Positions 1 to 41,557 of a stretch of DNA of 64,000 bases are shown here, in pieces (position 1 is the stretch's first letter; every line of letters starts with the position of its first letter). The translations under genes and the position numbers were made by a program. This stretch comes from an uncultured bacterium. GTDB lineage: Bacteria; Fidelibacterota; Marinisomatia; SCGC-AAA003-L08; GCA-002704045. Under the pieces are notes generated by a model that was not told where the DNA came from, ran no database searches, and worked only from the letters and a program-made list of their open reading frames with translations. Where the stretch lies: assembly GCA_964345035.1 (NCBI GenBank), contig CAYFPO010000007.1:2444-66443 (forward strand), read 5' to 3'.

Positions 1-1
1 A

Positions 2-274
2 CTCAACGAATTTGTAACATCAGGAATTGAACCCGGATGCACATTTTATCTGGATATTGATACAGAAGAAACTAACAGAAGGAAAAAGGGTGAAACGGAA
101 GACCGTATGGAGTCTTTAGGCCCCGAATTTATGGATAGAGTACGGAAAGGATATCTCAGTATTGCAGGAAAAAATCCTGAAAGAATTATGGTACTGGACG
201 GATATCAGGATATGGAAATTCTTTCCGATCAGATATGGAAAAAAATGCAGGAAAATTACACGGAATTAAAATGA
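2..274 (+). CDS. tmk: thymidylate kinase, C-terminal fragment (5' end outside window)
   Basis: Frame is open from the window edge to TGA at 272-274. The translation LNEFVTSGIEPGCTFYLDIDTEETNRRKKG..DRMESLGPEFMDRVRKGYLSIAGKNPERIMVLDG fits the C-terminal pattern of dTMP kinases (PDxTxxLD..R..DRxE..F..VR.GY). Confidence 0.7.
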   Translation, partial: LNEFVTSGIEPGCTFYLDIDTEETNRRKKGETEDRMESLGPEFMDRVRKGYLSIAGKNPERIMVLDGYQDMEILSDQIWKKMQENYTELK

Positions 275-1992
275 AAAAAATAAAATTGACTTTAGGATTC
301 CTTTTAGCTTTAAATCTTTTGATTGGTGAGGAATCTCCATCCACAACTGAAGAAATGCTTCAATTACTGAATGATGCTTTTTATAAACTTCGGGAAACCT
401 ATGTTGATTCCATTAATGACGAGGAAATCATAAAGGCAGGAATTAAAGGAATGCTGAAACCATTGGATCCATATACTAAATTTTTGGTTGGCAGCAGTAA
501 AGACCGGCTGGAAATGATGACCAAAGGAAAATATGGAGGAGTAGGCATTCAGATCGGGATGCGCCGGGACACCTTGGTGGTTTTATCACCTATGGAAGCC
601 AGCCCTGCGTATGAAGAAGGCATCATGTCCGGTGATAAAATTATTCAAGTGGATACTACCTCGACAATTGGAATGAGTACTACTGACGCTGCAGGTTTGA
701 TACGTGGAAAAATGGGAACTGAAGTTGTATTGCATATTTTGAGACCTTCCACAAAGCAACACCTGGAATTTTCGTTAACCCGTTCAAATATCAAAGTTGA
801 GGATGTGCCGTACTGGGGTATGGATGAACATGGTATCGGATATATCCGTATAACCAAATTTTCTAAACATACTGCCAGTGATTTTCATAAAGCATTGACA
901 AGTTTGGTTAAAAAAGATGACCTATCAGGAATCGTCATAGATTTGAGAGGGAACTCCGGTGGATTGCTGCAGAATGCCTTAGCAATTCTGGATGAATTTA
1001 CAGAGAGAAAAACTGAACTTTTGAATACAAAGGGACGGACCAAAAAAGCCAATAGATCTATGTATGCAAGAAGAAAAAATTTAGTTTCACCGGATATTCC
1101 TGTTGCTGTATTGATCAACAGGAGTTCTGCTTCAGCAAGTGAAATTGTGTCAGGGGCATTGCAGGATCTGGACAGAGCAGTGATAATCGGTCAAAAATCA
1201 TTCGGCAAGGGACTTGTTCAAAGTATTTATGCTATGAATGATACAGCAACATTAAAGGTGACAACCGCTAAATATTATACACCATCCGGTAGATTGATCC
1301 AAAAACTGGACTATTTGGAAAATGGAGTTCTGACAGATGGATATGATAAAAAAGATACATTGTTTACCACAATCGGCGGTAGAACAGTCCGTGGAGGCGG
1401 AGGGATTACCCCTGAGGTTGAAGTCATTCCTGAGAAACTACCGCCATTTGTTCAGGCATTATGGAGGCAGGGTGTATTCCTTAATTTTGCTGCATTGTAT
1501 GATAAGGCCAAAATAGGATATACCGACAGAATAATGATAACTGACCAAATTTTAAAAGATTTTGAAGAATTCATCAAAGAAGACAGTCTCGATTATAGTG
1601 AATATGGTGAGAAATATCTGGAACGATTAAAAGAAACTCTTACAAAACAGGATGAATTTACAGATTCTACAAAATCATTATTAGAAAAACTGATATTTTG
1701 GAGACCAAAAAAGAAGAGTGTTGATTTTTTAACACAAAGACTTGACAGTTACTATTCCAAAAAGAAAAATAACCCATTTGACGACCCAGATAATGTTAAA
1801 TGGATAATTAACGGACTTCAGAGAGAATTTTCCCGTGTTATGTGCGGAGTGACTACAGAATGCCACGAGAACCTCAATGGTTCCAAAGAAAGAATACGTG
1901 TAGCGCTGTTTGACGATGTAATTTATCAAAAAGCAGTGGAAATTCTATTGGATGCCAATCAATATTATGCACTGTTATCACCTGAGGAATAA
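271..1992 (+). CDS. ctp: carboxy-terminal processing protease (S41 peptidase with PDZ domain)
   Basis: ORF 235..1992. I prefer the ATG at 271, which gives the signal-like N-terminus MKKIKLTLGFLLALNLL. It has a PDZ-like segment GGVGIQIG..SPAYEEGIMSGDKIIQVD and S41 motifs DLRGNSGGLL and SASASEIVSGALQD..IGQKSFGKG. Confidence 0.9.
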   Translation: MKKIKLTLGFLLALNLLIGEESPSTTEEMLQLLNDAFYKLRETYVDSINDEEIIKAGIKGMLKPLDPYTKFLVGSSKDRLEMMTKGKYGGVGIQIGMRRDTLVVLSPMEASPAYEEGIMSGDKIIQVDTTSTIGMSTTDAAGLIRGKMGTEVVLHILRPSTKQHLEFSLTRSNIKVEDVPYWGMDEHGIGYIRITKFSKHTASDFHKALTSLVKKDDLSGIVIDLRGNSGGLLQNALAILDEFTERKTELLNTKGRTKKANRSMYARRKNLVSPDIPVAVLINRSSASASEIVSGALQDLDRAVIIGQKSFGKGLVQSIYAMNDTATLKVTTAKYYTPSGRLIQKLDYLENGVLTDGYDKKDTLFTTIGGRTVRGGGGITPEVEVIPEKLPPFVQALWRQGVFLNFAALYDKAKIGYTDRIMITDQILKDFEEFIKEDSLDYSEYGEKYLERLKETLTKQDEFTDSTKSLLEKLIFWRPKKKSVDFLTQRLDSYYSKKKNNPFDDPDNVKWIINGLQREFSRVMCGVTTECHENLNGSKERIRVALFDDVIYQKAVEILLDANQYYALLSPEE

Positions 1993-2001
1993 TTGAAAAT
2001 G

Positions 2002-2075
2002 GGTCGGTTAGCTCAGTTGGTTAGAGCGCCACGTTGACATCGTGGAGGTCACTGGTTCGACTCCAGTATCGACCA
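2002..2075 (+). tRNA. tRNA-Val (anticodon GAC)
   Basis: Hand-folded cloverleaf. Acceptor GGTCGGT/ATCGACC, D arm GCTC-AGTTGGTTA-GAGC, anticodon arm CCACG-TTGACAT-CGTGG, T arm ACTGG-TTCGACT-CCAGT, discriminator A. CCA is not encoded. Confidence 0.9.
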
Positions 2076-2082
2076 CATCGAT

Positions 2083-4038
2083 ATGAATACTATAGAGATT
2101 ACATTACCGGACGGAACCAAGCAATCCGTTAACCCGGGAACCACTCCCGGTGATATTGCATTGGGGATTGGAGAAGGATTATTCCGTGCATCCATAGCAG
2201 GAAAAGTGGATGGGGCTGAAGTAGATTTGAGTTATCCAATTGTTGCCGATGCACATGTAGAGATAATTACAGAAAAATCACCGGAAGCCCATGAGATCCT
2301 GCTCCACAGCACAGCCCATTTATTAGCTCAGGCGATAAAGGAATTATTTCCCAATGCTAAAATTGCAATCGGTCCTGCTATTGAGAATCGGTTTTATTAT
2401 GATATTGATTTGGATGATCCTGTAAATGATGAGGTTTTGGAAAAGCTGGAACACAAAATGAAAGAATTATCCAAATCCGACTATTCCGTTTCCAGGGTGG
2501 AATTAACCAAAGAAGAAGCCATGCAGAAATTTACCGAATTGAAGGAAGATTATAAGCTGGAGATTCTGGAACAGATTGACGATGGAGATATTATTTCTGC
2601 TTACACACAGGACAGTTTTATTGATCTGTGTCGAGGTCCCCATATTCCCACTACCGGTAAAATAAAATATTTTAAACTATTGTCCTCTGCAGGTGCATAT
2701 TGGCGAGGAGATGAAAACAATAAAATGCTTCAGAGAATATATGGGACTGCCTGGTTTTCAAAAAAAGACTTGAACACATATCTTCATCGTCTTGAGGAAG
2801 CCAAAAAACGGGATCATCGGAAACTTGGGAAAGAACTGGAAATTTATGCATTTGATGAAGAAGTCGGTCCCGGATTACCATTGTGGCTTCCAAACGGAAC
2901 GGTGCTCATCGATGAGCTTGAAAATCTGGCAAAAGAAACGGAAACCCGTGCAGGGTATCAAAGAGTAAAAACTCCCCATCTGACAAAAGGAGATTTATAT
3001 AAAAAATCCGGTCATTTGGAATTATATGAGGAACATATGTATCCTGCCATGAATATTGACGGCATTGATTATTATGTAAAACCAATGAACTGCCCTCATC
3101 ATCATAAAATTTATGCATCCAAACCACGGAGTTATCGGGATTTACCTCTTCGTCTTGCTGAATACGGCACTTGTTACCGATATGAAAAATCAGGTCAATT
3201 ATTTGGGTTGATGCGGGTGAGGAGTATGCAGATGAATGATGCGCATATTTATTGTACTCCTGAACAATTCAGAGAAGAATTCCTGAATGTCTGTAAAATG
3301 TACCTGGAATATTTTGAAATTTTCGGTATTGAAAAGTATCAAATGCGTCTTAGTCTCCATGACAGTGATGGGCTTGGTAACAAATATGTGGATGAACCTG
3401 AATTATGGAAACAAACAGAAGCAATTGTTAGAAACACGCTTGAAGAGGGAAAAATCAATTTTATTGAAGTTCCCGGAGAGGCTGCATTTTATGGACCAAA
3501 AATTGATGTACAGGTTTGGAGTGCTATCGAACGAGAATTCACATTGGCAACCAATCAGGTAGATTTTGCAATTCCTCACCGGTTCGATTTAACGTATACA
3601 GATGTTTCAGGTGATGAAAAAACACCACTATGCATCCACCGAGCGCCATTAAGCACCCATGAAAGGTTCATTGGATTCCTTATTGAACATTTTGGCGGGG
3701 ATTTTCCATTGTGGCTTGCTCCAGTTCAAGCTGTAATAATTCCTATTTCAGATAAATTTATTGATTACGCAGAATATATAAATAATCGTATCTTTAGCGC
3801 CCAAATTCGAACTAAAATTGATAGAAGAAGTGAAAAAGTCGGAGCAAAGATAAGAGATGCGGAATTGAATAAAATTCCGGTGATGGTAATTGTCGGCGAA
3901 AAGGAAGCCGAAGACAAGTTGGTTTCTGTTAGAAGACGGCATTTAGGTGATATGGGATCTATGGATTGTGATACATTTATTACTGATTTGAGAGCTGAAA
4001 TACAGAACAAAGCAAAAGGAGTAGCGAATAGCGGATAA
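2083..4038 (+). CDS. thrS: threonine--tRNA ligase
   Basis: 651 aa. It has an N-terminal TGS-like start MNTIEITLPDGTK, the editing-domain motif HSTAHLLAQA, and class II core motifs (YRYEKSGQL.GLMRVRSMQMNDAHI, FYGPKID). Confidence 0.97.
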   Translation: MNTIEITLPDGTKQSVNPGTTPGDIALGIGEGLFRASIAGKVDGAEVDLSYPIVADAHVEIITEKSPEAHEILLHSTAHLLAQAIKELFPNAKIAIGPAIENRFYYDIDLDDPVNDEVLEKLEHKMKELSKSDYSVSRVELTKEEAMQKFTELKEDYKLEILEQIDDGDIISAYTQDSFIDLCRGPHIPTTGKIKYFKLLSSAGAYWRGDENNKMLQRIYGTAWFSKKDLNTYLHRLEEAKKRDHRKLGKELEIYAFDEEVGPGLPLWLPNGTVLIDELENLAKETETRAGYQRVKTPHLTKGDLYKKSGHLELYEEHMYPAMNIDGIDYYVKPMNCPHHHKIYASKPRSYRDLPLRLAEYGTCYRYEKSGQLFGLMRVRSMQMNDAHIYCTPEQFREEFLNVCKMYLEYFEIFGIEKYQMRLSLHDSDGLGNKYVDEPELWKQTEAIVRNTLEEGKINFIEVPGEAAFYGPKIDVQVWSAIEREFTLATNQVDFAIPHRFDLTYTDVSGDEKTPLCIHRAPLSTHERFIGFLIEHFGGDFPLWLAPVQAVIIPISDKFIDYAEYINNRIFSAQIRTKIDRRSEKVGAKIRDAELNKIPVMVIVGEKEAEDKLVSVRRRHLGDMGSMDCDTFITDLRAEIQNKAKGVANSG

Positions 4039-4543
4039 AGGTACGGAACACCGTGTAAACGGTGAGATCACTGCAGAGTCAGTACGACTCATTGATGCAA
4101 ATGGAAAACAAGCTGGCATTCTCATCATCGAAAAAGCCCTTGAAAAAGCGGATAAAGCAGATTTGGATCTGGTTGAAATTGCACCAAATGCAAATCCACC
4201 GGTTTGTAAGTTGCTGGATTATGGTAAGTTTAAATATGAACAGCAAAGGGAACAGAAGAGAAACCGGAAAAAACAACATACAGTAAGTGTTAAAGAAATA
4301 CGACTAAGACCTAGTATAAGCGATCACGATCTTCTGACTAAATTAACAAAAGCAAAGCAATTCCTTGGAGAAGGCTGTAAATTAAAATTCACAGTCATGT
4401 TCAGAGGTAGAGAACGGGCAAGGATGGAAACCGGTGAAGTGTTATTAAACAGGGTGATTGAAATATTAGAAGATTTAGCTAAGATCGAAAAGGCGGCAGA
4501 TACTGAAGCAAACAGAATGACTTTGATCATGTCGCCAAAGTAA
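4028..4543 (+). CDS. infC: translation initiation factor IF-3, probable non-canonical ATA start
   Basis: The track ORF (4163..4543) lacks the conserved N-domain. The same frame is open back to TAG at 4022-4024 and encodes (I)ADKGTEHRVNGEITAESVRLIDANGKQAGIL..DLDLVEIAPNANPPVCKLLDYGKFKYEQ, a typical IF-3. No ATG, GTG or TTG lies upstream of the conserved RVNGEI. ATA at 4028 is preceded by GGAG at 4017-4020. Confidence 0.8.
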   Translation: MADKGTEHRVNGEITAESVRLIDANGKQAGILIIEKALEKADKADLDLVEIAPNANPPVCKLLDYGKFKYEQQREQKRNRKKQHTVSVKEIRLRPSISDHDLLTKLTKAKQFLGEGCKLKFTVMFRGRERARMETGEVLLNRVIEILEDLAKIEKAADTEANRMTLIMSPK

Positions 4544-4558
4544 GGAGATATATTTAAA

Positions 4559-4753
4559 ATGCCAAAAATGAAAACAAGAAGATGTGCTGCAAAGAGATTC
4601 AGCAAAACCGGATCAGGAAAAATAAAACACAACAGATCAGGTGCAAGGCATCTATTGACGAGAAAAAGTTCCTCGAGAAAAAGAAAATTGAGGAAAAACG
4701 GTACATTATCCGGTGGTGTGTACCGCAGAACAAAAAAAATGATCAACTCATAA
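4559..4753 (+). CDS. rpmI: 50S ribosomal protein L35
   Basis: 64 aa, [24 protein letters not shown].., very basic, in the canonical position after infC. SD AAGGAG lies upstream. Confidence 0.95.
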
Positions 4754-4766
4754 AGGAATATTTACT

Positions 4767-5111
4767 ATGCCAAGAGCAAACAGTTCAGTACCAAGACACA
4801 GAAGACATCGAAAACTTGTTAAACAGGCGAAAGGGTATTTTGGTACAAGAAAATCCAATTACAGAACCGTAAAAGATGCCCTCGCAAAAGCATGGAGTTA
4901 TGCATATCGCGACAGAAGGCAGAAAAAAAGAGACTTCCGCAGATTATGGATTACCCGTATTAACGCTGGTGTCCGCCTGCATAATATGAAATATTCAGCA
5001 TTTATTTCTGGATTGAAATCAAAAAATATTGAATTAAACAGGAAATCTCTCGCCCATATGGCTGTCCACGATCCAGATGGTTTTGCAGAAATTGTAAAAT
5101 CAGTCAGCTGA
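4767..5111 (+). CDS. rplT: 50S ribosomal protein L20
   Basis: 114 aa, MPRANSSVPRHRRHRKLVKQAKGYFG..YAYRDRRQKKRDFRRLWITRINA, the classic L20 sequence. Confidence 0.97.
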   Translation: MPRANSSVPRHRRHRKLVKQAKGYFGTRKSNYRTVKDALAKAWSYAYRDRRQKKRDFRRLWITRINAGVRLHNMKYSAFISGLKSKNIELNRKSLAHMAVHDPDGFAEIVKSVS

Positions 5112-5121
5112 AATAATTCTC

Positions 5122-6141
5122 GTGTCCATTAAGGATAAGATACGGGAAGTAGAGAATCAATTTTTACAGGACACAAAAGAACCCCCACAAACCCCTGAAG
5201 AATTAGAACTGCTGAGGAATCAGTATCTTGGGCGGAAAGGAGTAATCGCTGCATTATTTTCCGAAATGGGCGCATTATCCAAAGAAGAACGCCCAATTGC
5301 AGGTAAATTGCTGAATGATCTGAAGATTCAGACTGCGGCAAATATTGAACAAATATCCAGCAATATAACTGTAGAAAAAACTCAGTCGGATACATTGGAT
5401 TATACTCTACCTGGAGATCCATTACCAGTTGGCTCCAGACATCCATTGACAATTGTAATGGAAGATATTAAATCCATTTTCACCAAATTGGGTTTTTCCA
5501 TTGCATACGGTCCCGAAGTGGACACTGAATTCTACAATTTTGAAGCATTAAATATCCCTGAGCATCATCCTGCCCGGGATATGCAGGACACATTTTATAT
5601 AGAACCCGGTGTTGTGTTGAGAACACACACTTCAAATACCCAGATCCATACTTTATTACAACATGCTGTCCCGGTGAAAATTATTGCTCCGGGAAGAGTA
5701 TATCGTAATGAGGATATCAGTGTTAGGAGTTATTGTCTTTTCCATCAGGTGGAAGGCTTGTATGTAGATAAAAATGTGACTTTTGGTGACCTAAAAGGAG
5801 TGCTGGATTTCTTTGCAAAGGAATTTTTTGGGAATGATGTTAAAACCAGGTTCAGACCAAGTTATTTCCCGTTTACAGAACCCAGTGCTGAAATGGATGT
5901 ATCCTGTATTTTCTGTCAGGGAAAAGGGTGTAAGATCTGCAAACATGCAGGTTGGCTGGAAATACTTGGATGCGGTATGGTTGACCCTGAAGTTTATAAT
6001 TCTGTGGAAATTGATCCGGATGAATGGACAGGATATGCATTTGGAATGGGAATTGAAAGAATGTCAATGCTCAGATATGGAGTAGAAGATATACGTATGT
6101 TCTATGATGGAGATATCCGTTTTTTGAGGCAATTCAGTTGA
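5122..6141 (+). CDS. pheS: phenylalanine--tRNA ligase alpha subunit
   Basis: 339 aa with a GTG start. Motifs HPARDMQDTFY, RTHTS..Q, FRPSYFPFTEPSAE, GMGIERMSMLRYG. Confidence 0.96.
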   Translation: MSIKDKIREVENQFLQDTKEPPQTPEELELLRNQYLGRKGVIAALFSEMGALSKEERPIAGKLLNDLKIQTAANIEQISSNITVEKTQSDTLDYTLPGDPLPVGSRHPLTIVMEDIKSIFTKLGFSIAYGPEVDTEFYNFEALNIPEHHPARDMQDTFYIEPGVVLRTHTSNTQIHTLLQHAVPVKIIAPGRVYRNEDISVRSYCLFHQVEGLYVDKNVTFGDLKGVLDFFAKEFFGNDVKTRFRPSYFPFTEPSAEMDVSCIFCQGKGCKICKHAGWLEILGCGMVDPEVYNSVEIDPDEWTGYAFGMGIERMSMLRYGVEDIRMFYDGDIRFLRQFS

Positions 6142-8519
6142 AAATTTCACTAAACTGGATACAGGATTATTTAAAAACTACCAAACCACCGGATGAACTG
6201 GTTGCGGGGTTGACCGCCCTTGGACTTGAATGCACTGCTGAATCCAGTGAATATACATTCTCTGGTGTGGTAATAGGTGAGGTTGTTGAATGTGAAAAGC
6301 ATCCCAATGCGGATAAATTATCACTGTGCAGAGTAAATGCTGGAGGAAACTCTTTGTTGGATATTATTTGCGGTGCTCCTAATGTCATAGCGGGAATTTC
6401 TGTGCCCGTAGCACCTGTGGGTGCTGTCCTGAAATCGGGCGAATTTAAAATCAAAAAAACTAAAATTCGCGGAGTGGAATCAAATGGTATGATTTGTTCC
6501 GGTGCTGAGTTGGATTTATCTGAGGATCATACCGGTATTCTCGTCCTGGAAACTGATGAGTCGCCTGGAACAAATTTCAAAAATACACTACCACAAAAAC
6601 AGGATACAATTTTTGAAATTGATCTTACTCCAAACAGGGGCGATTGTTTTGGACATTTGGGAGTTGCAAGGGAAATTGGATTGCTTGAAAATACTCCGGT
6701 AATCAGACGTAATAAAGAAATTTTGCCCGGAAACACAAAAATTGAAGATGTTGCATCAGTCAAAATACTGAGCATGGAGGGATGTCCAAGGTATGCTGCC
6801 CGTGTAGTCACCGGAGTGAAAATTGGTCCATCACCGGATTGGCTGGTAGAAAAACTATCTGCAATCGGACAGAAATCCATAAACAATGTGGTAGATGCCG
6901 CAAATTTCGTTTTGATGGATACAGGACATCCCATGCATACTTTCGATTTGAAAAAACTCGCTGGCAATGAAATTCAAGTTAGATTTGCAAAAACAGGTGA
7001 AAAAATTACCTTGCTGGATGAACAGGAATATGATCTAAAGGAATTCCACCTGTTGATTTGTGACAAGGAAAAGCCTGTAGCTTTGGCTGGAATTATGGGA
7101 GATTTGGATTCCGGCATATCAGGTGATACCACTGATATATTGATTGAAAGTGCATATTTTGATCCGACAGTTATCCGGAAAGGAGCTAAACATTTTGACC
7201 TATCAACGGAAGCATCCAAGCGGTTTGAAAGAGATACGGATATTGAAGGATTAATACCTGCATTGAATCAACTCGCTGCATTGATACAGGAGGTTGCCGG
7301 AGGAGAAATTGCAGATGGAATCATAGATGTATATCCTGACAAAAAAAATCCCGGTAAGATCACATATAGTTTGGTTGAATGTAATGCATTCTTAGGAACA
7401 GATATTAGTGAAAAAGAAGTAGAAAAATATTTAACCGGTTTGGAAATTACATGGGAAAAAACCAATCAGGACTATAATTGTGTCGTCCCCACATTTAGGA
7501 ATGATTTGACCCGTACAGTGGATATTTATGAAGAAATTGCCAGAGTGTATGGTTTTAATAATATTCCATATAAACCCGTATTTACAGGAAGTTATACATC
7601 ATTTATTCATGATGACCATAAAAAAACATCCGATATTCAATCCACTTTAGCAAATTTGGGATTTATTGAGCATTATTCCAATAGCCTGATAAATAATCGA
7701 TATGCAAAAGAATTTTCAAATAATGTACCGGTAAAAATATCGAACCCCCTCAGCATGGAAATGGAAGTTTTAAGAACTTCATTACTACCCGGTTTACTCG
7801 AGGCAGTATCTTATAATGAAAAACGAAGCCAGAATAATTTCAAATTGTTTGAAATTGGCGCTGTACATAAATTTATTCCCAAAAAAGAGACAAGATCTTG
7901 TGAGTCATTTTCAGTTGGTATCGTTTGGAATTTTGCTGAAGATCTGCATTGGAGGGAATTAAATCCAGGAGATTTTTACCGTGTAAAAGGAGAATTAACC
8001 ACAATTCTGCGTTTAATCGGATGCACTAACATTCAGTTTTCATTGACTGAGCAATTGGGATATCAAGCAGCTTTTCAGGTAAAATCCGGAAAAATTAAAA
8101 TTGGTGTGGTTGGAACACCTGTGCTGGAAATTTTACAGTCCCGTGATATTAACCATGAAATTTTCGTTTTTGAAGGGAATATTGACAATATCAGAAAATC
8201 CTGTGATAGAAAACAAATAACTATCAGTAAACCAAACCCATTCCCGGCAATCAGTAGAGATATCGCAATTCAGGTGAAACACGAAATTTCTAATAAAAAT
8301 ATTATGGACTTGATACATTCAAACGGGGGTGAATTTCTAACATCCGTACATTTATTTGATTTTTATCAGGATGAAAAATTAGGTGATGATCAAAAAAGTT
8401 TGGCATATTCACTGGTATTTCAATCAGCAGATAAAACACTAACTGATAAAGAAGCAGATAAATGGGTAGGCCAGGTCATTTCTGCATTGAAAACAAATTT
8501 TAATATAATTCAGAGATAA
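6138..8519 (+). CDS. pheT: phenylalanine--tRNA ligase beta subunit
   Basis: 793 aa, overlapping the pheS stop by 4 nt. It starts MKISLNWIQDYL, has a tRNA-binding OB domain (VVECEKHPNADKLSLCRV), B3/4 and B5 regions, and a C-terminal FDX-ACB-like end. Confidence 0.96.
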   Translation: MKISLNWIQDYLKTTKPPDELVAGLTALGLECTAESSEYTFSGVVIGEVVECEKHPNADKLSLCRVNAGGNSLLDIICGAPNVIAGISVPVAPVGAVLKSGEFKIKKTKIRGVESNGMICSGAELDLSEDHTGILVLETDESPGTNFKNTLPQKQDTIFEIDLTPNRGDCFGHLGVAREIGLLENTPVIRRNKEILPGNTKIEDVASVKILSMEGCPRYAARVVTGVKIGPSPDWLVEKLSAIGQKSINNVVDAANFVLMDTGHPMHTFDLKKLAGNEIQVRFAKTGEKITLLDEQEYDLKEFHLLICDKEKPVALAGIMGDLDSGISGDTTDILIESAYFDPTVIRKGAKHFDLSTEASKRFERDTDIEGLIPALNQLAALIQEVAGGEIADGIIDVYPDKKNPGKITYSLVECNAFLGTDISEKEVEKYLTGLEITWEKTNQDYNCVVPTFRNDLTRTVDIYEEIARVYGFNNIPYKPVFTGSYTSFIHDDHKKTSDIQSTLANLGFIEHYSNSLINNRYAKEFSNNVPVKISNPLSMEMEVLRTSLLPGLLEAVSYNEKRSQNNFKLFEIGAVHKFIPKKETRSCESFSVGIVWNFAEDLHWRELNPGDFYRVKGELTTILRLIGCTNIQFSLTEQLGYQAAFQVKSGKIKIGVVGTPVLEILQSRDINHEIFVFEGNIDNIRKSCDRKQITISKPNPFPAISRDIAIQVKHEISNKNIMDLIHSNGGEFLTSVHLFDFYQDEKLGDDQKSLAYSLVFQSADKTLTDKEADKWVGQVISALKTNFNIIQR

Positions 8520-8528
8520 GGGGAAAAA

Positions 8529-8834
8529 ATGAGTGAGCAAAATGTAATAAAAGTGCCGATTATGGGGCAGGAATATGTTGTGAATACAACAGCACCGGCA
8601 AAATATATCAATGATATAGCTTCATATGTGAATGACAAAATGGAAGAGATTCAGGAATCTGGTATTGAGCAGGATTCACAGCTCCGAATTGCAGTGCTTG
8701 CAGCAATGAATATCACTGATGAACTTTTTACCGGAAAGAAGAATCAGGATAAACTCTTCAGTGAACTTGAAAAGAAAACCAACAAAGTAAAAAAACTGGT
8801 AGATAAAGAAATCCAAAACCTGGAAAAACAGTAA
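8529..8834 (+). CDS. zapA: cell division protein ZapA-like
   Basis: 101 aa. V.I.GQEY.V......YI.DIASYV.DKM.EI ... AVLAAMNITDEL followed by a coiled-coil tail fits the ZapA pattern. A position downstream of pheST is seen in other bacteria. Confidence 0.7.
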   Translation: MSEQNVIKVPIMGQEYVVNTTAPAKYINDIASYVNDKMEEIQESGIEQDSQLRIAVLAAMNITDELFTGKKNQDKLFSELEKKTNKVKKLVDKEIQNLEKQ

Positions 8835-8844
8835 TTATTACAAT

Positions 8845-9726
8845 TTGAAAACCACACTACTGGTTGGTAAACCTGTTGCTGACCATCTAAGAAAAAGACT
8901 GAGCAATGTTGTTCAGACTCTCGCAGATGCCAGTATAACACCTGGATTAGCTGCTGTAATAGTTGGTGATGATCCTGCATCGCAAGTTTATGTCAGAAAC
9001 AAGGAAAGAGCATTTGCAAAACTGGGATGCTACAGCAAAACAATTCATCTACCACAAAATACTACTGAAGAGGAAATTCTAAATCTCATAAGAAATCTAA
9101 ACAACGATCCTGCATTTCACGGTATATTAGTACAATTACCACTACCAAAACATTTAAACAGTAGAATAATTCTCCATGCTGTGAATCCCAAAAAAGATGT
9201 AGATGGGTTCCATCCTGAAAATCTGGGATTACTTCTGGAGGGGAATCCTGGTTTTGTTCCCTGTACTCCGAATGGAATTTTAGAAATCTTGAAGTATTAT
9301 CAAATTCCGGTCAATGGGCGGCATGCGGTAATCGTAGGCAGAAGCAATATTGTAGGTAAACCAATGTTTGCGTTATTATGCCAAAAATTTGAAATGGGAA
9401 ATGCCACGGTGTCCATTTGTCATACAGGTACACAGAATATTAACCAATTTACAAAACAGGCAGATATACTCATAGCCGCAGCAGGTTCACCCGGAATGAT
9501 AACAGGAGAAATGCTCAAACAAGGTGTGGATATCATTGATGTTGGGATCAATCGAGTTGAGGATGATTCTGAAAAGGGATACCATTTATGTGGAGATGTG
9601 GATACAGAATCCGTGATGGGTATTGCAAACAGTGTCACTCCCGTACCGGGAGGTGTAGGTCCATTGACCATTACAATGCTGCTCTCCAATACCATAAAAT
9701 CTGCGAAAAGAAATTTATTTAATTGA
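8845..9726 (+). CDS. folD: bifunctional methylenetetrahydrofolate dehydrogenase/cyclohydrolase
   Basis: 293 aa with a TTG start. Motifs PGLAVI.VGDDPASQVYVRNK, GILVQLPLP, VDGFHP.N.G, VIVGRSNIVGKP, TPVPGGVGP.T. Confidence 0.95.
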   Translation: MKTTLLVGKPVADHLRKRLSNVVQTLADASITPGLAAVIVGDDPASQVYVRNKERAFAKLGCYSKTIHLPQNTTEEEILNLIRNLNNDPAFHGILVQLPLPKHLNSRIILHAVNPKKDVDGFHPENLGLLLEGNPGFVPCTPNGILEILKYYQIPVNGRHAVIVGRSNIVGKPMFALLCQKFEMGNATVSICHTGTQNINQFTKQADILIAAAGSPGMITGEMLKQGVDIIDVGINRVEDDSEKGYHLCGDVDTESVMGIANSVTPVPGGVGPLTITMLLSNTIKSAKRNLFN

Positions 9727-9736
9727 TAATTTACTT

Positions 9737-9808
9737 GCCCCTGTAGTTCAATGGATAGAATGAAGGATTCCGGTTCCTTTGATACAGGTTCGACTCCTGT
9801 CGGGGGTA
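9737..9808 (+). tRNA. tRNA-Arg (anticodon CCG)
   Basis: Hand-folded. Acceptor GCCCCTG/CGGGGGT (G-U at pairs 1 and 6), anticodon arm AAGGA-TTCCGGT-TCCTT, T arm ACAGG-TTCGACT-CCTGT, discriminator A. Confidence 0.85.
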
Positions 9809-9898
9809 CAAATCTACATCCGGATAAATCCGGGATTACAATTTACATGCCGGTTTCAATTGTGAATCAAACATCGATAAATATTAGTAAATGGAAAT

Positions 9899-9972
9899 AG
9901 GATTCCGGTTCCTGGGATACAGGTTCCCTGTCCGCCCTACAGTGAAGCCGGCGGGGACTCCTGTCGGGGGTA
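9899..9972 (+). pseudogene. tRNA-Arg 3'-half copy interrupted by a 29-nt GC-rich insertion in the T-loop (unit 1)
   Basis: AGGATTCCGGTTCCTgggATACAGGTTC[cctgtccgccctacagtgaagccggcggg]GACTCCTGTCGGGGGTA compared with the genuine tRNA. There is no acceptor 5' strand and only a degenerate D-arm-like stretch (TAGTAAATGGAAAT). Confidence 0.8.
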
Positions 9973-10062
9973 CAAATCTACATCCGGATAAATCCGGGAT
10001 TACAATTTACATGCCGGTTTCAATTGTGAATCAAACATCGATAAATATTAGTAAATGGAAAT

Positions 10063-10136
10063 AGGATTCCGGTTCCTGGGATACAGGTTCCCTGTCCGCC
10101 CCGCGTGCAAGCCGGCGGGGACTCCTGTCGGGGGTA
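10063..10136 (+). pseudogene. tRNA-Arg 3'-half copy interrupted by a 29-nt GC-rich insertion in the T-loop (unit 2)
   Basis: Same as unit 1, but the insertion reads cctgtccgccccgcgtgcaagccggcggg. Confidence 0.8.
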
Positions 10137-10343
10137 CAAATCTACATCCATGGTAAACCGAAATTATAGATTTACTCAAAAAATACGGTTTTAGATATTT
10201 TAACAAAGTTACAAATAAAAAAAATCTCTATGTAATTGAATGAAATTCTTTTTTAAATTTGTAAATGTTTATCAGGTGAAATTGCATTCGGTTAACTTAC
10301 ATTTTAATTTTATGAAAAATCAAATCAATAAAGAGGATAAAGT

Positions 10344-11147
10344 ATGAATCTTGGTACCTTAGTAGGATTATTATTAGGTTTCGCATTAATAGGTACAGGT
10401 ATGTACCTGTCTGCAAGTGGTGCAGGAAAAACAATGCTTGACTATTATGATACAGTTAGTATGCTTATTGTTTTGGGTGGTTCCTTGTCCGCAACTGCAA
10501 TTGCTTTTAAAATCGGAGATGTACTGTCTATTTTTAAATCCCTGGGCAGATTATTCAAGGATGATAATTTCACATTGGGGGACGTAGTGGATGATTGTGT
10601 AGAACTGGCTGAATCAAACAGAAAAGGACAGTTGGAAGGGCAATTAGATGCAACACCATCCTCCATGCCATTCAGGATGCATCCAATTAAAACTGGCATA
10701 CAAATGATCGTTGATGGTAGTAAACCTGAGGATATTGAGGAAGTATTAGAAAATACAGAGAAATACCGTTCACAAAGGGAAGCTATCAAAGCCAATGTAT
10801 TGAAAAAAATGGGTGAATATTCACCGGCATTTGGGATGGTAGGAACATTAATCGGCCTAGTTATGATGTTGTATGGTATGGGTTCAGGTGAAAGTGAAGA
10901 TATGGCAGCCAAATTAGGTCTTTCAATGGCGGTAGCATTAATAACCACATTATATGGAGCCATATTCGCTAATTTTTTCTTCTTACCATTTTCTGATAAA
11001 CTCAAAGGTAAAAATGAACAAAAAAGTGTTGAAAGTGCTTTATGTAGTGCAGGAGTCATGCTCATAGCAAAAAAGGTGCATCCAATATTAGTTAGAGAAA
11101 AACTCAATGCATATATTCCACGGGTTCAACGAAAAACTGAAGAATAA
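10344..11147 (+). CDS. motA: MotA/PomA-family stator channel protein
   Basis: 267 aa with a 2 TM + ~100-aa cytoplasmic loop + 2 TM layout. It has the conserved TM3 motif YSPAFGMVGTLIGLV and a TM4 proline (FFFLPF). Confidence 0.85.
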   Translation: MNLGTLVGLLLGFALIGTGMYLSASGAGKTMLDYYDTVSMLIVLGGSLSATAIAFKIGDVLSIFKSLGRLFKDDNFTLGDVVDDCVELAESNRKGQLEGQLDATPSSMPFRMHPIKTGIQMIVDGSKPEDIEEVLENTEKYRSQREAIKANVLKKMGEYSPAFGMVGTLIGLVMMLYGMGSGESEDMAAKLGLSMAVALITTLYGAIFANFFFLPFSDKLKGKNEQKSVESALCSAGVMLIAKKVHPILVREKLNAYIPRVQRKTEE

Positions 11148-11899
11148 TGGCAAAACCATTTAGAGAAGAAGATTGTCCTGTATGTCCTGATGAAGGATTG
11201 CCGGGATGGATGGGTACATTTGCAGATATGATGACATTATTGTTTGCATTTTTTGTACTTTTGTTTTCCATGTCAACCTTAGACCCTGTTAAAATGGCTC
11301 AAATGGCAGAAACAATGACTGATTTTACAACAGGTGCTAAGGAGGATACACCAGATAAAGAACCTATGAAAAGTTCTTCTCAAATAAAATCAGATCTAAA
11401 CGAAATTAAGGATAATGTTGATGAAAGTTTAAAAGGTAAAATTACCGTTTCAAGTGATGAACAAGGCGTTGCTGTTGAATTGGATGGTGATATTTGTTTT
11501 GATATGGGAACTGTGATTTTACATGAAAAATTGATGGAAATATTAGATACAGTAGCTCCAAAATTGATGACACATCCTACAGATATGCGACCAATTCAAA
11601 TACAGGGGCATTCGGATAATATCAAGGTTCCTTTTCCATTAAGTGAAAAATTTCCTACGAACTGGGAATTATCATCTGCAAGGGCTGCTGTGGTAGTAAA
11701 TTATTTAATTAAAAATCATGGCATTAATCCGACCAGGCTAAGGGCAATTGGATTTGCAGATAGATGGCCATACGGGATTGATTTTATGGATATGAGAAAA
11801 CACGGGTTTGTTGATGATGCAAAGATTGCAGAATATAATTCTACTCCTGAAAAAATGGCGAAAAATAGAAGAATAAAAATCGTATTCCAACCCAGTTAA
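11147..11899 (+). CDS. motB: MotB/PomB-family stator protein with OmpA-like peptidoglycan-binding domain
   Basis: 250 aa. The ATG overlaps the motA stop (TAATG). N-terminus ..CPVCPDEGLPGWMGTFADMMTLLFAFFVLLF carries the conserved TM aspartate. The C-terminal OmpA-like region is NWELSSARAAVVVNYL...RLRAIGFADRWP. Confidence 0.85.
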   Translation: MAKPFREEDCPVCPDEGLPGWMGTFADMMTLLFAFFVLLFSMSTLDPVKMAQMAETMTDFTTGAKEDTPDKEPMKSSSQIKSDLNEIKDNVDESLKGKITVSSDEQGVAVELDGDICFDMGTVILHEKLMEILDTVAPKLMTHPTDMRPIQIQGHSDNIKVPFPLSEKFPTNWELSSARAAVVVNYLIKNHGINPTRLRAIGFADRWPYGIDFMDMRKHGFVDDAKIAEYNSTPEKMAKNRRIKIVFQPS

Positions 11900-12069
11900 T
11901 AATATTCTTCTTCATCTGATTTTCTATTTATTAACCACCGCTTAATCATTAGTACTATTAGAATTACTCCTGAAATAGTTATTAATTTTGAAAAAATAAG
12001 TAATTTTGTACCAGTACCAAATACAGTAGTGATTTGGACAGTAAACCATTCTAAAAAATTTTCAATCAT
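11896..12069 (-). CDS. possible small membrane protein (57 aa), below the ORF-track cutoff
   Basis: Hand translation: MIENFLEWFTVQITTVFGTGTKLLIFSKLITISGVILIVLMIKRWLINRKSDEEEYY*. It has one hydrophobic helix and a charged tail. There is no clear SD, and it lies in AT-rich DNA where chance ORFs are plausible. Confidence 0.25.
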   Translation of the reverse strand: MIENFLEWFTVQITTVFGTGTKLLIFSKLITISGVILIVLMIKRWLINRKSDEEEYY

Positions 12070-12176
12070 AATACAGGTAATATTTTGCCGGATAAATTAA
12101 AAAATTCTGTACAATTTATCATTTTTATAATCATATTTATTTTGGTATTGATCTTAATCATTGCTGATAAATAAAT

Positions 12177-13784
12177 TCAGCATTTCAATAAATTAATGCT
12201 CACCGTTGTCAATTCACCCCCGGGAAATAGTTTTTGAAATTTTAGATCTTCGATTAAACCTGCTTTTCGGGCACAGTCCAGCATAATATCTAACTCAACA
12301 ATATATTGATCTGTATATCCATGGGTTGCATCATAGGCGGTTGCTAAAGTTCTACCTAAATTATTTGCTGTGAGTTCCGGTGGGATTGTATGCAGTTCCA
12401 GAACGAGGAGTCCGTGTTTCTCTATATATGGTTTCCAATTATTAAAATGATCAATCAGATTCTGCTCTAATTCATAATTTGGAATCCATTTACCTCTAAA
12501 CGCAAATGCTCCGGTTGAGTTGCTTTTATAAGAAGAATCCATTTGGTTAGGGGAGGTATAAATCCGGTTATGATCCAGAAATGACCGTACATTCAACAAG
12601 TTGCTCAAATCTACATTAAATTCGGATTTAATTTTTTCAGCAAATGACTTTGGGTTACCAATATTCCCATGAAGAACGTGGTGGTGAATTCCTGCATCTG
12701 ATAATGTCTTTTCTGTCGCAACTCTTGCTGCAGGGTTAAAGTCACCACCAATAATTACAAGCGGGTAATCATGTATATAAGCACCTCTGCGGGTTGAGGA
12801 TGTCACTACCTCATAAATATGTTTCAGGAATGATCCATCACCACAGCCCATATCTGCAATTCCTATGGGTTGTTGTTCGATGGGTTGATTGAATGTTTCA
12901 ATAATTATTTTATCAATGGTATCAAAATAGGTTTTATGAGCACCACCGCTTCCCCATACATTCATGGGCCGGTTCACGTGGGATTCATCTCCGGATTCTG
13001 TTCTGTGCCATAAAACGGTAGGATTTCCATACAATAATTCCGATAATTGTAGGAAAGTGGATAAATAAGACACTGTAACACCATAGGCAGTTGCAAGGGA
13101 AATAGCATATTCTCCCTCCGGAGTGACAACATAATTATCGTCATTTTTAAGAATCCAGGATTCCAATGAGAAAATTCTACTGATGCTCTGGTAATTATTG
13201 CAGACAAGGTAATCCAGTAATGTATTGGGCTCTTTCAATAATCCTGCTCTGCCGAGTGCTACTATTACAGGTCCGATGAGCCCACCATTCAGTTGATTGA
13301 GGATTTGAAATTCTACAGATGATATATCATCAATATCAGATTGTGTAAATCCCCAGAGATTCTCCGCAGACTGCAATAATTCATAAAAAATACCATCGAT
13401 ATCATGGAGATTATTTTCAGTAATCAATTTCTCCAGATACACTGCTTCAGAATACCATGGGATCAGTTGTGAATATTTATGTGCATATTGAATCATATTT
13501 CGTCCTAAGTCCGTAAGAGAATATTCAATATTTTTACCATCTTTCAACACAGTTCTCATCAACCAACCCTGTGAAGCTAATAATCTCAACGCTATATTAA
13601 TATATCCAATGTTCGCATTAAATTTTCTAATAATGGAACATAAATCCCAGTGTCCTTCTTTTTCCATATAATCAATGATTCCTTTTTTGAACAATGCATC
13701 AATTGTTGGCGCTATGGTAATTCCATCCAAATGGCGAAAAATGGTATTACGTATTTTTAATTTAGATTGTCTCGAAATATTCAA
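12177..13784 (-). CDS. class I SAM-dependent methyltransferase with a ~300-aa N-terminal extension (two winged-helix/lid-like segments)
   Basis: 535 aa. The Rossmann-fold motif I is IGIADMGCGDGSFL, followed by an acidic beta-2 end (VIIGGDFNPAA) and a later GLLVLELH. The N-terminal half holds two similar segments (FRHLDGITIAPTIDALFKKGIIDY.. and LNQLNGGLIGPVIVALGRAGLLKE..). Substrate is unknown. Confidence 0.65.
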   Translation of the reverse strand: MNISRQSKLKIRNTIFRHLDGITIAPTIDALFKKGIIDYMEKEGHWDLCSIIRKFNANIGYINIALRLLASQGWLMRTVLKDGKNIEYSLTDLGRNMIQYAHKYSQLIPWYSEAVYLEKLITENNLHDIDGIFYELLQSAENLWGFTQSDIDDISSVEFQILNQLNGGLIGPVIVALGRAGLLKEPNTLLDYLVCNNYQSISRIFSLESWILKNDDNYVVTPEGEYAISLATAYGVTVSYLSTFLQLSELLYGNPTVLWHRTESGDESHVNRPMNVWGSGGAHKTYFDTIDKIIIETFNQPIEQQPIGIADMGCGDGSFLKHIYEVVTSSTRRGAYIHDYPLVIIGGDFNPAARVATEKTLSDAGIHHHVLHGNIGNPKSFAEKIKSEFNVDLSNLLNVRSFLDHNRIYTSPNQMDSSYKSNSTGAFAFRGKWIPNYELEQNLIDHFNNWKPYIEKHGLLVLELHTIPPELTANNLGRTLATAYDATHGYTDQYIVELDIMLDCARKAGLIEDLKFQKLFPGGELTTVSINLLKC

Positions 13785-13933
13785 AATTTTATGTAATATA
13801 CACTACAAAATAGGGTATCTTTTTCTTTGCTAAGAAAAATGAACCCTATAATTTAAAAAGTTATATCGAGGAAATGAATAATCCTTTATTCAATTTTCAT
13901 ACAAAATTCTCTTTTATAAAATCAGGAGGCAAC

Positions 13934-16792
13934 ATGAAGTCCATAGATGTCAAAAGTGTAATAATCGGAATGCTATCAATGGTAATCATTTTTATGACTG
14001 TTGGTATGCGCCAGACTGTAACCAATATGGGTGATATAGGTGTCACCTCTATTACCGTGATCGGCGAGGATGATGAAAAAGCATTGTTCATCGGCAGCGG
14101 AGGTGGTGGAAACGGTTATTTAAAAACGTATAATAAATATGGTAAAACCAGCGCATATCTGGGAACCGGAGGAGGCGGAACAGGTGGTTTCAAAATCTAT
14201 AACAGAGATGGTAAAACTCTGGCCTTCATTAGTGGATCTAAAGAAGGGAGAGGATTTCTGGAAATTTCAAATTCTAATGGAGATGCTGCAGCAAAATTAC
14301 TCGCAGATGATAATGATAGTGGACAATTGAGATTAAATGATGCGGATGGCAATATGGCATTTGATTCGGATAATGCAATGACTGGAGATGCATCTTTAGG
14401 TGATGTAACTGTTAATTCACTTTCTGTAATTGATGCAGAAGATGCACTGAAAGTGTATCTGGGTGTGGATGATGAGAAAAATGGGTATCTCCGGGTCACT
14501 CATGAAATTGAAGATTATTATTATCCATCAGATGAACCGGAAATTGAATTAGATACTTTTGGTGACATTTCAGTAAAATCCATTACAATTACTGATAGTG
14601 ATAACAATACCAGGGCATTCTTAGGATTGGATGATTCCCAAAATGGTCAATTAAAACTCTCAGATACTGAAACAGAAACTGTATATCCTCTGACTGAAGC
14701 TGAGCCGGAATTAGATTTCGGGGATATTCGTGTATCGTCCCTTACTGTAGTAAACGAAAATCAAAGTGCAATAGGATATTTTGGGCCATCTGATGAGGGA
14801 AAAGGCAATATCCGCACTTTGGATATGGAAGGAAGTGTACTGTTTTCATCAGATGAAACATCCAAAGTTGAAGGAAATCTTGGAAATATCCGTGTTAATT
14901 CCATAACTGTCCAGGATGGTGCAGAAAATGAGGTAATATACCTTGGTACTGATGAAGCTTTAAATGGACTCATCAGTGTTGCAAATGCAGATGGAGATGT
15001 TACATTTACAACTTCAGATCCTGCTAAAGAGAGTAAAGAGAAAAATCTGGGGGACATCACAGTAAATTCTATTACTGTAATGAATGAATATTTCACACCT
15101 ACTACATTTATCGGAAATACACCTGAGGGAAGTGGCCGTTTGGAAGTAAATGATTTTACGGGAAATTCAATTTTTAATTCGGATCAGGCAGTACAGACGG
15201 GTGAAGAATTTGGAGAGATCCAGGTGAGATCACTTGAGATAGTTAATCAAAATCAAGAAACCATGATGACACTTGGCACCGCACAAGGACAATTCGGTGT
15301 AATGAAAGCCAGGGATTCCGCCGGAAATGTGATCTTTTCATCTGATGAGATACCCAAGGGTGGGGATGGTCAAATTACCGGTGACGATATTGTTGTGAAT
15401 TCCATTACACTAAAAAATGAAAATGATGAGATAACCGGATTCCTTGGAAATTCCGAAGATGGAAACAGTGAGTTAAGGATATACGGTACTGATGAATCTG
15501 AAACAGTATTATTAGGGACAAACTTCAGTGGACACGGATTTATGAGGACGTATAATACAGATGGTACTCAGACATTGTATATGGGAACTTCTGAAAGTGG
15601 CGACGGATTATTAAAAACGTATAGTTCAGAGGGAAAAAAGACTACTTATTTGGGTTCTAACAAAAACAATACAGGCATGTTGAACACCTATAATGATTTT
15701 GGAGATATGGCGGCAATGATTGGTACATCATCTAATAACAGCGGCACTACAAAAATGTTTGATTCAAACGGTGGATTGATTTTTTCAGTTAATGATACTT
15801 CTGGCAATACTACAACTAAAAATCTTACAGCAAAAAGTGTAACCGTAGTAGATGGTTCGGGTGCAGGGAAAGGATTTATTGGTGTTAATAATTTCGGTAA
15901 AGGATTTATCAGTACCAATAATGTATATACTGACACAATTAGGTCTGAATATGGCAATACTACTAAAATTCAAGCCAATCAGGTCGCAGTTAAAAATGAC
16001 TACGGTGAGGAAAGAATTTTCTTGGGAGTAAATCAAGAAGATATAGGTTTTATAAAAACCAATTTATCCAATACAGATATTGACTTTCTTTCAACTGAAT
16101 CGGCTAAAAATACAGAAGTCCTGGGAGATATTCAGGTTTCCTCTTTATCCATCACTACCCCGGAGGGAGATACCCGTGTATTTTTGGGGAGAAATAAGGA
16201 AGGAAATGGAATCATTACCACTCATAATGAAATAGGCGCCCAGACTAACTTTCTTGGCTCAGATATTGACGGTAGTGGTAAACTACAGATATCAAATACA
16301 ACTGGACAAAAAATTGCGACAATCGGAACAGGAGTGAATGATGGAGGTTCATTGACTACATACAATCGAATGAATGAGATAACTGCATCATTGGGTGTCA
16401 GTGAAGATGGTGTTACCGGTCACCTCACTGGAATTGATCACGTGGAAACATTTAATCAAATTGGTTTTAAAACCGCTTACTTTGGGAACGGAAGTAGTGA
16501 TGAAGGACTGTTACGTGTATTTAATGCAGAAGGTGTACAATCCATGTTGATGGGGACCTTATCCACAGGTGGTGGAATTATCACATCAAACACTAAAGGA
16601 CTGATTACATCCTTTCTTGGAACCAGCGGTAGTGATGGCGGTCATTTGATCACTTATAATTCTTATGGTAAGAAAACATCCTTTATGGGTACAAATAAGC
16701 ATAATGACGGGATGGTGATCCTACGGGATAAAGGTGGCAATATCGGATGGGGAAAAGATGGGAGAATTCCGGCATACTACGCAAAACAATAA
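13934..16792 (+). CDS. membrane-anchored repeat protein (single N-terminal TM, then ~36 degenerate 22-29-aa Gly/Asn/Thr-rich repeats)
   Basis: ORF 13874..16792. I prefer the ATG at 13934, preceded by AGGAGG. TM helix SVIIGMLSMVIIFMTVG. Repeats are of the form G.G.L.(T/V)YN..GK.T.YLGT.... and of the form (L/F)GDI.V.SITV.D......(Y/F)LG.....G.L.... No enzymatic motif is recognised. Confidence 0.75.
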   Translation: MKSIDVKSVIIGMLSMVIIFMTVGMRQTVTNMGDIGVTSITVIGEDDEKALFIGSGGGGNGYLKTYNKYGKTSAYLGTGGGGTGGFKIYNRDGKTLAFISGSKEGRGFLEISNSNGDAAAKLLADDNDSGQLRLNDADGNMAFDSDNAMTGDASLGDVTVNSLSVIDAEDALKVYLGVDDEKNGYLRVTHEIEDYYYPSDEPEIELDTFGDISVKSITITDSDNNTRAFLGLDDSQNGQLKLSDTETETVYPLTEAEPELDFGDIRVSSLTVVNENQSAIGYFGPSDEGKGNIRTLDMEGSVLFSSDETSKVEGNLGNIRVNSITVQDGAENEVIYLGTDEALNGLISVANADGDVTFTTSDPAKESKEKNLGDITVNSITVMNEYFTPTTFIGNTPEGSGRLEVNDFTGNSIFNSDQAVQTGEEFGEIQVRSLEIVNQNQETMMTLGTAQGQFGVMKARDSAGNVIFSSDEIPKGGDGQITGDDIVVNSITLKNENDEITGFLGNSEDGNSELRIYGTDESETVLLGTNFSGHGFMRTYNTDGTQTLYMGTSESGDGLLKTYSSEGKKTTYLGSNKNNTGMLNTYNDFGDMAAMIGTSSNNSGTTKMFDSNGGLIFSVNDTSGNTTTKNLTAKSVTVVDGSGAGKGFIGVNNFGKGFISTNNVYTDTIRSEYGNTTKIQANQVAVKNDYGEERIFLGVNQEDIGFIKTNLSNTDIDFLSTESAKNTEVLGDIQVSSLSITTPEGDTRVFLGRNKEGNGIITTHNEIGAQTNFLGSDIDGSGKLQISNTTGQKIATIGTGVNDGGSLTTYNRMNEITASLGVSEDGVTGHLTGIDHVETFNQIGFKTAYFGNGSSDEGLLRVFNAEGVQSMLMGTLSTGGGIITSNTKGLITSFLGTSGSDGGHLITYNSYGKKTSFMGTNKHNDGMVILRDKGGNIGWGKDGRIPAYYAKQ

Positions 16793-41533: not shown

Positions 41534-41557
41534 CAGTTTAATGATGGAGATTATTCA

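Follow-up and report, generated by a model that had tools for sequence, protein, structure and literature searches.

Immediately downstream of an intact tRNA-Arg(CCG) gene, between folD and a motA/exbB-type gene, we find a short tandem repeat built from displaced pieces of that tRNA, in which almost all differences between copies and between assemblies fall within two short patches. This clustering is real and is not drift. Tentatively, and with something short of even confidence, we read the structure as a young, species-specific DNA repeat that arose from a displaced fragment of tRNA-Arg(CCG) and resembles an att scar, rather than as a conserved RNA gene. The anatomy of the locus, the clustering, the difference in copy number, the confinement to a single lineage and the lack of partner genes in the window (by which we mean the whole 64-kb stretch of DNA that was analyzed) are established.

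The folD-motA locus and its repeat

The folD gene ends at 9726 and the motA/exbB-type gene begins at 10344, with tRNA-Arg(CCG) and the repeat in between. TRF describes the repeat as having a period of 164 bp and 2.2 copies, from 9792 to 10149. With X for the portion of the intact tRNA that precedes repeat A, X' for its copies, i for the insert, and S and D for spacers, the order at the locus is X-A-S-X'i-A-S-X'i-A-D. The features are as follows.

9737-9809, + strand: intact tRNA-Arg(CCG), parent of the copies (ARAGORN; Rfam RF00005, 62 bits)
9792-9821, + strand: direct repeat A, 30 nt, copy 1
9822-9899, + strand: spacer S, copy 1, 78 nt, AT-rich
9900-9926, + strand: tRNA copy X', 27 nt, unit 1
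9914-9917 (unit 2: 10078-10081), + strand: variable patch 1, in the tRNA variable-loop region
9919-9964, + strand: predicted extended T-arm hairpin of unit 1 (unit 2 at 10083-10128)
9927-9955, + strand: GC-rich insert i, 29 nt, in the T loop, unit 1
9938-9944, + strand: variable patch 2 of unit 1, TACAGTG, at the hairpin apex
9956-9985, + strand: direct repeat A, copy 2, identical to copy 1
9986-10063, + strand: spacer S, copy 2, with 100% identity to the first copy
10064-10090, + strand: tRNA copy X', unit 2
10091-10119, + strand: GC-rich insert i, 29 nt, in the T loop, unit 2
10102-10108, + strand: variable patch 2 of unit 2, CGCGTGC
10120-10149, + strand: direct repeat A, copy 3, identical, with the unique spacer D towards motA coming next

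Repeat A contains the 3' half of the T loop, the 3' strands of the T stem and acceptor stem, and 12 nt of trailer. All three copies of this 30-nt block are identical, and it is the adjacent parts that hold the insertion and the patch changes. The X' copies span the anticodon stem-loop, the variable region and the 5' strand of the T stem as far as the TTC of the T loop. Each starts with GGATTCC of the anticodon stem, matches the tRNA up to GGTTC, and has the same base at 25 of 27 positions, with the anticodon stem-loop perfectly retained. The left edge of X' is sharp and lies at the base of the anticodon stem; similarity extended 5' into the D arm is not significant. The downstream copies are not functional tRNA genes: they have neither the acceptor 5' strand nor the D arm, their T loop is split by 29 nt, and ARAGORN and Rfam call only 9737-9809. 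Spacer S, for which no other match turned up, contains two hairpins, a small one at 9820-9833 and one of 10 bp formed by 9834-9843 with 9858-9868.

The insert splits the T loop between TTC and GACT, and the match to the tRNA resumes at GACTCCTGTCGGGGGTAC. The sequence-only reading of this DNA had described it as far more GC-rich than its surroundings, and it is: with 21 and 24 G+C of 29, the two inserts are the most GC-rich 29-mers in the window, where G+C is 34-41% (the genome figure is 37% GC). The insert has no copy elsewhere in the window, even with 3 mismatches allowed. The same reading suggested that its 5' part, CCTGTCCGCCCTA, is a second, diverged tRNA 3' end, which it may be. The coordinates and sequences given there, covering the 29-nt insert, the stem positions and the identity of the two units, are all correct by alignment, TRF and ARAGORN.

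The fold of the insert can be drawn in more than one way. The CCGCC/GGCGG stem that had been proposed does exist, at 9932-9936 with 9950-9954 and at 10096-10100 with 10114-10118, but it is only one of several possible pairings, and ViennaRNA prefers a longer, irregular hairpin that prolongs the T stem: ACAGG/CCUGU, then UCCCUGUC/GGCGGGGA, then GC/GC. The loop of this predicted hairpin is 11 nt, CC-N7-AA, with the variable 7-mer placed symmetrically at the apex. Folded as RNA, the 47-nt piece gives -20.9 and -21.6 kcal/mol for units 1 and 2 (z -2.4 and -2.1). The favorable score holds for the T-arm hairpin only; the whole 164-nt unit has a z of -0.3 to -0.85 on either strand, no better than shuffled sequence, and units 1 and 2 give different minimum-energy whole-unit folds. 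Folds with DNA parameters are ambiguous and also differ between units 1 and 2. Separately, the loop of the longer spacer hairpin, GCCGGTTTCA (9849-9858; 10013-10022), has its complement in the invariant 3' half of the insert, TGAAGCCGGC (9943-9952; 10107-10116); the predicted helix between spacer and insert would have about 15 bp in unit 1, across the whole 7-mer, and 8 bp in unit 2.

Roughly 40 ORFs examined across the window encode housekeeping functions (aminoacyl-tRNA synthetases, riboflavin synthesis, SMC, glycolysis and Trk among them), and no integrase, excisionase, transposase, reverse transcriptase, nuclease system or cargo is found among them. No promoter or terminator signal stands out at the locus, and no terminator is predicted between the units and the tRNA. 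A search of 9000-11000 against Rfam 15 at E up to 10 returned the tRNA alone and chance-level matches (YrlA at 15.8 bits, against a cut-off of 69). A 57-codon ORF at 9891-10064 (+) spans one unit, and in its frame each patch opens on the third base of a codon (PTVK versus PACK, LGY versus LCY). Of the 5.8 billion proteins searched, none shares even three 5-residue words with it, and a coding peptide was set aside, the ORF being treated as chance.

Some features elsewhere in the window deserve mention in their own right. An AprA-like protein at 12177-13784 (-), with N-terminal, winged-helix and MT2-like methyltransferase domains, is encoded beside motA-motB in relatives as well, and a 972-aa ORF at 13874-16792 (+), which adjoins the AprA-like gene, has no Pfam match. 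At 23-33 (-), GGTTCAATTCC resembles a tRNA T arm cut by the start of the window. The ORF of a TPR-repeat protein (41492-42835) overlaps tRNA-Leu(GAG) at 41449-41534 by about 40 nt, and its true start is probably further downstream.

Two variable patches

Within the window, units 1 and 2 differ solely in patch 2, at six of its seven bases, and the other 157 nt are identical. The sequence-only reading had noted that the differences were packed into 7 nt; the probability that 6 differences in 164 positions would all fall within 7 nt is 3.9e-8. The two 7-mers share one base of seven, which is the random expectation, and they have the same length and sharp borders. Sequences as unlike as random ones, of equal length and sharply bounded, point to a single replacement event rather than to accumulated point mutation.

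Exact-sequence look-up of the neighboring proteins recovered five other assemblies that run through the locus, four from ENA (separate runs, PRJEB17505) and one NCBI MAG contig (GCA_973355675.1). Each of them carries just one unit, whose loop allele is CGCGTGC, and the window alone has two. The two copies reported before are thus present in the window but not in the other assemblies. Once unit 1 is taken out, the window differs from these assemblies by 2-10 scattered SNPs per 12 kb and by a second clustered patch, patch 1 (9914-9917), which is visible only from this comparison. The sequence of bases 9914-9918 is GGGAT in the window, as against TTGTT in the five others and TTGAT in the intact tRNA; all five differ from the window at 10078, 10079 and 10081 (unit-1 equivalents 9914, 9915 and 9917), and for 3 differences in 6,804 nt to lie within 4 nt has a probability of 3.9e-7. 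Compared with the tRNA, patch 1 seems rather to have arisen by two small mutations that are independent of each other, a SNP and a change of one dinucleotide.

Three alleles can therefore be written for the pair of patches, (TTGTT, CGCGTGC), (GGGAT, CGCGTGC) and (GGGAT, TACAGTG), and they are related stepwise, one patch per step. Stem positions are unchanged across the three. The earlier argument against random drift gains from this, since the further allele differs in one short patch only, with the stems as before; neither an even spread of substitutions nor loss of the stem is seen in the five other assemblies.

In k=31 Logan contigs, which cover eight runs of two projects, the breaks fall precisely on the edges of the 30-mer A, and because they do so in every sample, the repeat of A is real throughout. 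Upstream of the repeat, Logan contigs of SRR22722177 and ERR2281801 match the window at 100% identity; set beside the 2-10 SNPs per 12 kb in the assemblies over 1-12202 of the window, this implies that at least two near-clonal populations are represented.

Neither 7-mer, nor the variable sequences more generally, has a match elsewhere in the window, and no template for a new patch sequence was found there. Gene conversion or template switching from a local donor was rejected on this basis, as the window holds no donor and the best candidates match at 11/14 at unrelated sites. Flip-flop inversion of the hairpin loop was likewise rejected, given that, whichever way the stem is defined, reverse-complementing one loop does not yield the other. 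The variable region of a diversity-generating retroelement (DGR) has a reverse transcriptase and a template repeat nearby, and its variation is confined to positions of template adenines, all of which are re-randomized together. The window contains no reverse transcriptase and no template repeat or third copy of the unit, adenines that stay constant, at 9919, 9921, 9945 and 9946, lie in among variable positions, and the three alleles show independent assortment of the two patches; a DGR was rejected on these three counts.

Origin of the repeat

The unit appears to be confined to a single lineage. The best genome match for FolD has 66% identity, and several of the next matches, at 50-55%, are Neomarinimicrobiota. 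In relatives, the orthologous position is occupied by tRNA-Arg(TCG) or tRNA-Arg(CCG). In the nearest syntenic relatives, whose MotA is 73-76% identical and whose gene order is pheT, zapA, folD, tRNA-Arg, motA, motB, small ORF and AprA-like gene, tRNA-Arg(TCG) is followed by an AT-rich spacer of about 97 nt, with no unit and no hairpin, and the unit is likewise absent from more distant Marinimicrobia in which folD is followed by tRNA-Arg(CCG). The metagenomic homologues that the sequence-only reading hoped to collect did not turn up: a pattern for any insert of 15-45 nt in the T loop of this tRNA found none in 185,579 species genomes or in JGI metagenomes. Being absent from syntenic relatives, the structure is recent and dispensable, an innovation of one species-level lineage.

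Two further observations concern the tRNA itself. It is Arg(CCG) in the window and Arg(TCG) in the syntenic relatives, with covarying changes in the acceptor stem, so that anticodon identity has switched at this locus in the lineage of the window. In the closest species-level genome (FolD 66%), a contig ends within the T stem of tRNA-Arg(TCG) (...ACAGG, 3445-3494); this could be a break induced by a repeat or merely low coverage.

We imagine that the att-like scar arose in four steps. In the first, a 3' segment of the tRNA gene that starts where the anticodon stem begins and takes in 12 nt beyond the 3' end would have been duplicated downstream, 78 nt apart, a layout such as might be left by a tyrosine-integrase element at an anticodon-centered site that was later cut down to its ends, as a gene-less remnant. 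In the second, the displaced copy, free of tRNA function, would have gained the 29-nt GC-rich palindromic insertion in its T loop, so that the T arm would have become a hairpin with some 15 bp. In the third, unequal recombination between direct repeats (30 nt, then 157 nt) would shift the copy number between one and two. In the fourth, single multi-nucleotide replacements would occur, limited to two segments that stay unpaired when this strand folds, the hairpin apex and the variable-loop junction. Because the 7-mers are random-like, of the same length and sharp at their ends, the favored route would be a heterology-tolerant tyrosine recombinase that exchanged a heterologous overlap (coupling) sequence, with break-and-repair at the hairpin tip as a fallback. 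We infer both the integrase origin and the mechanism of patch replacement from this layout.

An att-type scar had been raised in the sequence-only reading as an alternative, and it is the suggestion that fits the anatomy best. In its favor, the copy number is two in the window and one in the five assemblies, against a background of 2-10 SNPs per 12 kb. Against it, the window has no integrase, excisionase or cargo, none of the viral, phage and plasmid sequences searched bears the unit, the spacer or the hairpin, the supposed remnant of an element is only 78 nt, just three alleles are known, and patch 2 is flanked by imperfect inverted repeats that are separated by 11-13 nt. In core sites of tyrosine recombinases, such repeats are typically 6-8 nt apart. 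Overlap exchange also does not explain patch 1. A purely local duplication is less likely than an att-type remnant; spacer S weakly resembles the native DNA downstream (P about 0.01 in an anchored comparison, not significant globally), and this resemblance, if real, would favor such a duplication.

The account that survives next best, though we hold it to be doubtful, is that the tandem is an artefact of assembly, a single unit with two loop alleles in which the cycle through the 30-nt repeat was threaded twice. Hypervariability would still be real, and the two copies would be alleles rather than paralogues. That every one of the five other assemblies has exactly one unit is consistent with this, as is the stretch of 157 identical nt between the loops, which is hard for short reads; the breakage of k=31 contigs at the 30-mer in every sample fits one unit or two equally. 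However, the two-unit path needs a junction of the insert/GCCGGCGGG, repeat A and spacer S/GGATAAATCC that is absent from a single-unit genome, standard multi-k assemblers do not normally invent such junctions, and a change in unit number is biologically expected for 157-nt direct repeats.

It is unlikely, in our estimate, that the locus encodes a tRNA-derived structured RNA, cotranscribed with tRNA-Arg, whose two unpaired patches serve as recognition or guide segments that set specificity for each unit or allele. Several features are what such an RNA would show: the varying bases are all in segments with no predicted pairing and the stems are the same in the three alleles, the anticodon stem-loop is intact, the units are co-oriented with the tRNA without a predicted terminator between, the T-arm hairpin beats shuffled sequence (z -2.1 to -2.4), and 9849-9858 of the spacer can base-pair with the insert's constant 3' half, a pairing that in unit 1 enters the patch. 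The folding test proposed earlier thus favors the T-arm hairpin, but it does not extend to the unit as a whole (z -0.3 to -0.85), for which the two units differ in minimum-energy fold. Identical stems provide no covariation in support of any structure. There is no Rfam family, no associated protein gene in the window, and no unit in the syntenic relatives (MotA 73-76%) or in the searches of collections; the variable sequences match nothing else in the window, and 7 nt offers little specificity. Moreover, no known mechanism reprograms a loop so quickly against a near-zero background. On the same points (no partner gene and no match to the 7-mers in the window, no Rfam family, an ordinary whole-unit fold, and absence from relatives and searched collections), the specificity segment or programmable guide loop proposed by the sequence-only reading gains no positive support, and the reading of the patches as specificity determinants is unproven. 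Nor can the loops have been kept different to block recombination, as was also proposed, because 7 nt of heterology cannot stop it across 157 identical bases, and copy number does vary.

We give little credence to the idea that the insert is a small mobile GC-rich palindrome with a preference for GGTTC^GACTCC, of which the units independently received different family members. Loops would then differ through long divergence within the family, and real tRNAs would be kept uninterrupted by selection. The extreme GC content of the insert in a 37% GC genome and the identical, precise insertion point in both units agree with this, and conserved stems around an unrelated loop would make fast local mutation unnecessary. 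The target is not unique, as the 11-mer GGTTCGACTCC of the T loop is also present in tRNA-Val at 2054. On the other side, no other copy with 3 or fewer mismatches exists in the 64 kb. A pattern for the hairpin alone, with exact stems, found eight matches in JGI metagenomes, all in unrelated contexts on contigs of 53-71% GC, and none in viral contigs. Two independent hits in identical orientation would be needed, and patch 1 would be left unexplained. Regarding a phage or plasmid attP as the source, the unit, the spacer, the insert and the tRNA half have no matches in IMG/VR, INPHARED or PLSDB, and this origin was rejected; the 24-mer of T arm and acceptor has three viral matches, each an unrelated tRNA gene.

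Similarly improbable is a tRNA-derived recombination site or RNA whose patches are actively rewritten by an unrecognized mechanism other than a DGR, making it a minimal programmable element beside a tRNA gene, with its enzyme encoded elsewhere in the genome and a distinct short recognition sequence in every unit or strain.

Comparison with known elements

What defines tRNA-targeted islands is an intact tRNA directly followed by co-oriented 3' fragments, and the classes of crossover sublocation within tRNA genes include anticodon-centered and T-stem sites (PMC4383910). As in the scars left by tyrosine-integrase islands (PMC4383910), the locus has an intact tRNA followed by co-oriented 3' copies that run from the base of the anticodon stem to just past the end, and, as in island attL/attR arrays, a perfectly conserved identity block in tandem arrangement. 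Unlike islands, it has no integrase or island, only 78 nt between repeats, a 29-nt insertion in the T loop, and variation in two patches. By the rules of Islander, the intact tRNA with its co-oriented downstream fragment and a boundary at a known crossover sublocation (the anticodon) are both present; between the tRNA and the fragment lies only the 78-nt spacer, with no integrase or island DNA.

The closest analogy for a remnant without genes is with CIMEs. These att-flanked remnants of integrative elements have lost their recombination genes, are kilobases long, and have a demonstrable helper element (Streptococcus thermophilus). Like them, the repeat consists of noncoding DNA between direct att-like repeats at a conserved chromosomal site, with a copy number that can be changed by accretion or recombination; unlike them, it has a unit of 164 bp and no known helper.

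For the patches, precedents come from conjugative elements. Tn916 Int and IntDOT recombine across nonhomologous coupling (overlap) sequences, leaving heteroduplexes (PMC5812530). As with the coupling sequences of Tn916 and CTnDOT (PMC5812530), a patch of 6-7 bp has been swapped wholesale with its length kept and its flanks identical. The locus has a same-length, unrelated patch, but the window has no such element, ends or target consensus, the target is a GC-rich hairpin, and patch 1 does not look swap-like. Targets of Tn916 and CTnDOT are AT-rich or of the GTANNTTTGC type.

An integron attC site is a folded hairpin with a variable terminal structure and R''/R' core sites, RYYYAAC/GTTRRRY. The unit resembles attC in its constrained stems and bulges and in an apical loop that is free to vary. 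It differs in that GGTTCCCTG (GTTCCCT) on the + strand and AGGGAAC on the - strand give no R''/R' fit, and both an integron integrase and cassettes are missing. Inspection of the sequence revealed no attC, dif or REP (GTAG) motif, and these candidates were rejected. Yeast mitochondrial GC clusters and REP elements are mobile GC-rich palindromes that form highly repeated families; they share with the insert a short GC-rich hairpin within AT-rich, nonessential sequence, whereas the insert has no copy outside the units in 64 kb. An archaeal-type tRNA intron interrupts an otherwise complete tRNA, in an organism with the splicing endonuclease. Such an intron at 56/57 was rejected here, as the insert is found only in truncated copies and the genome is bacterial, Marinimicrobia-like.

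Taken together, the most economical account is a young scar of att or duplication type with recombination-driven instability. If the patches are footprints of recombinase overlap, the locus would preserve in nature the traces of an integrative element that came back several times to a tRNA site in an uncultured marine lineage, and would show that such scars can pass for designed variable loops. If the patches are actively rewritten or selected, it would be a very small, tRNA-derived programmable recognition module, and a new one. Either way, the locus offers a clean case of multi-nucleotide replacement on a near-clonal background.
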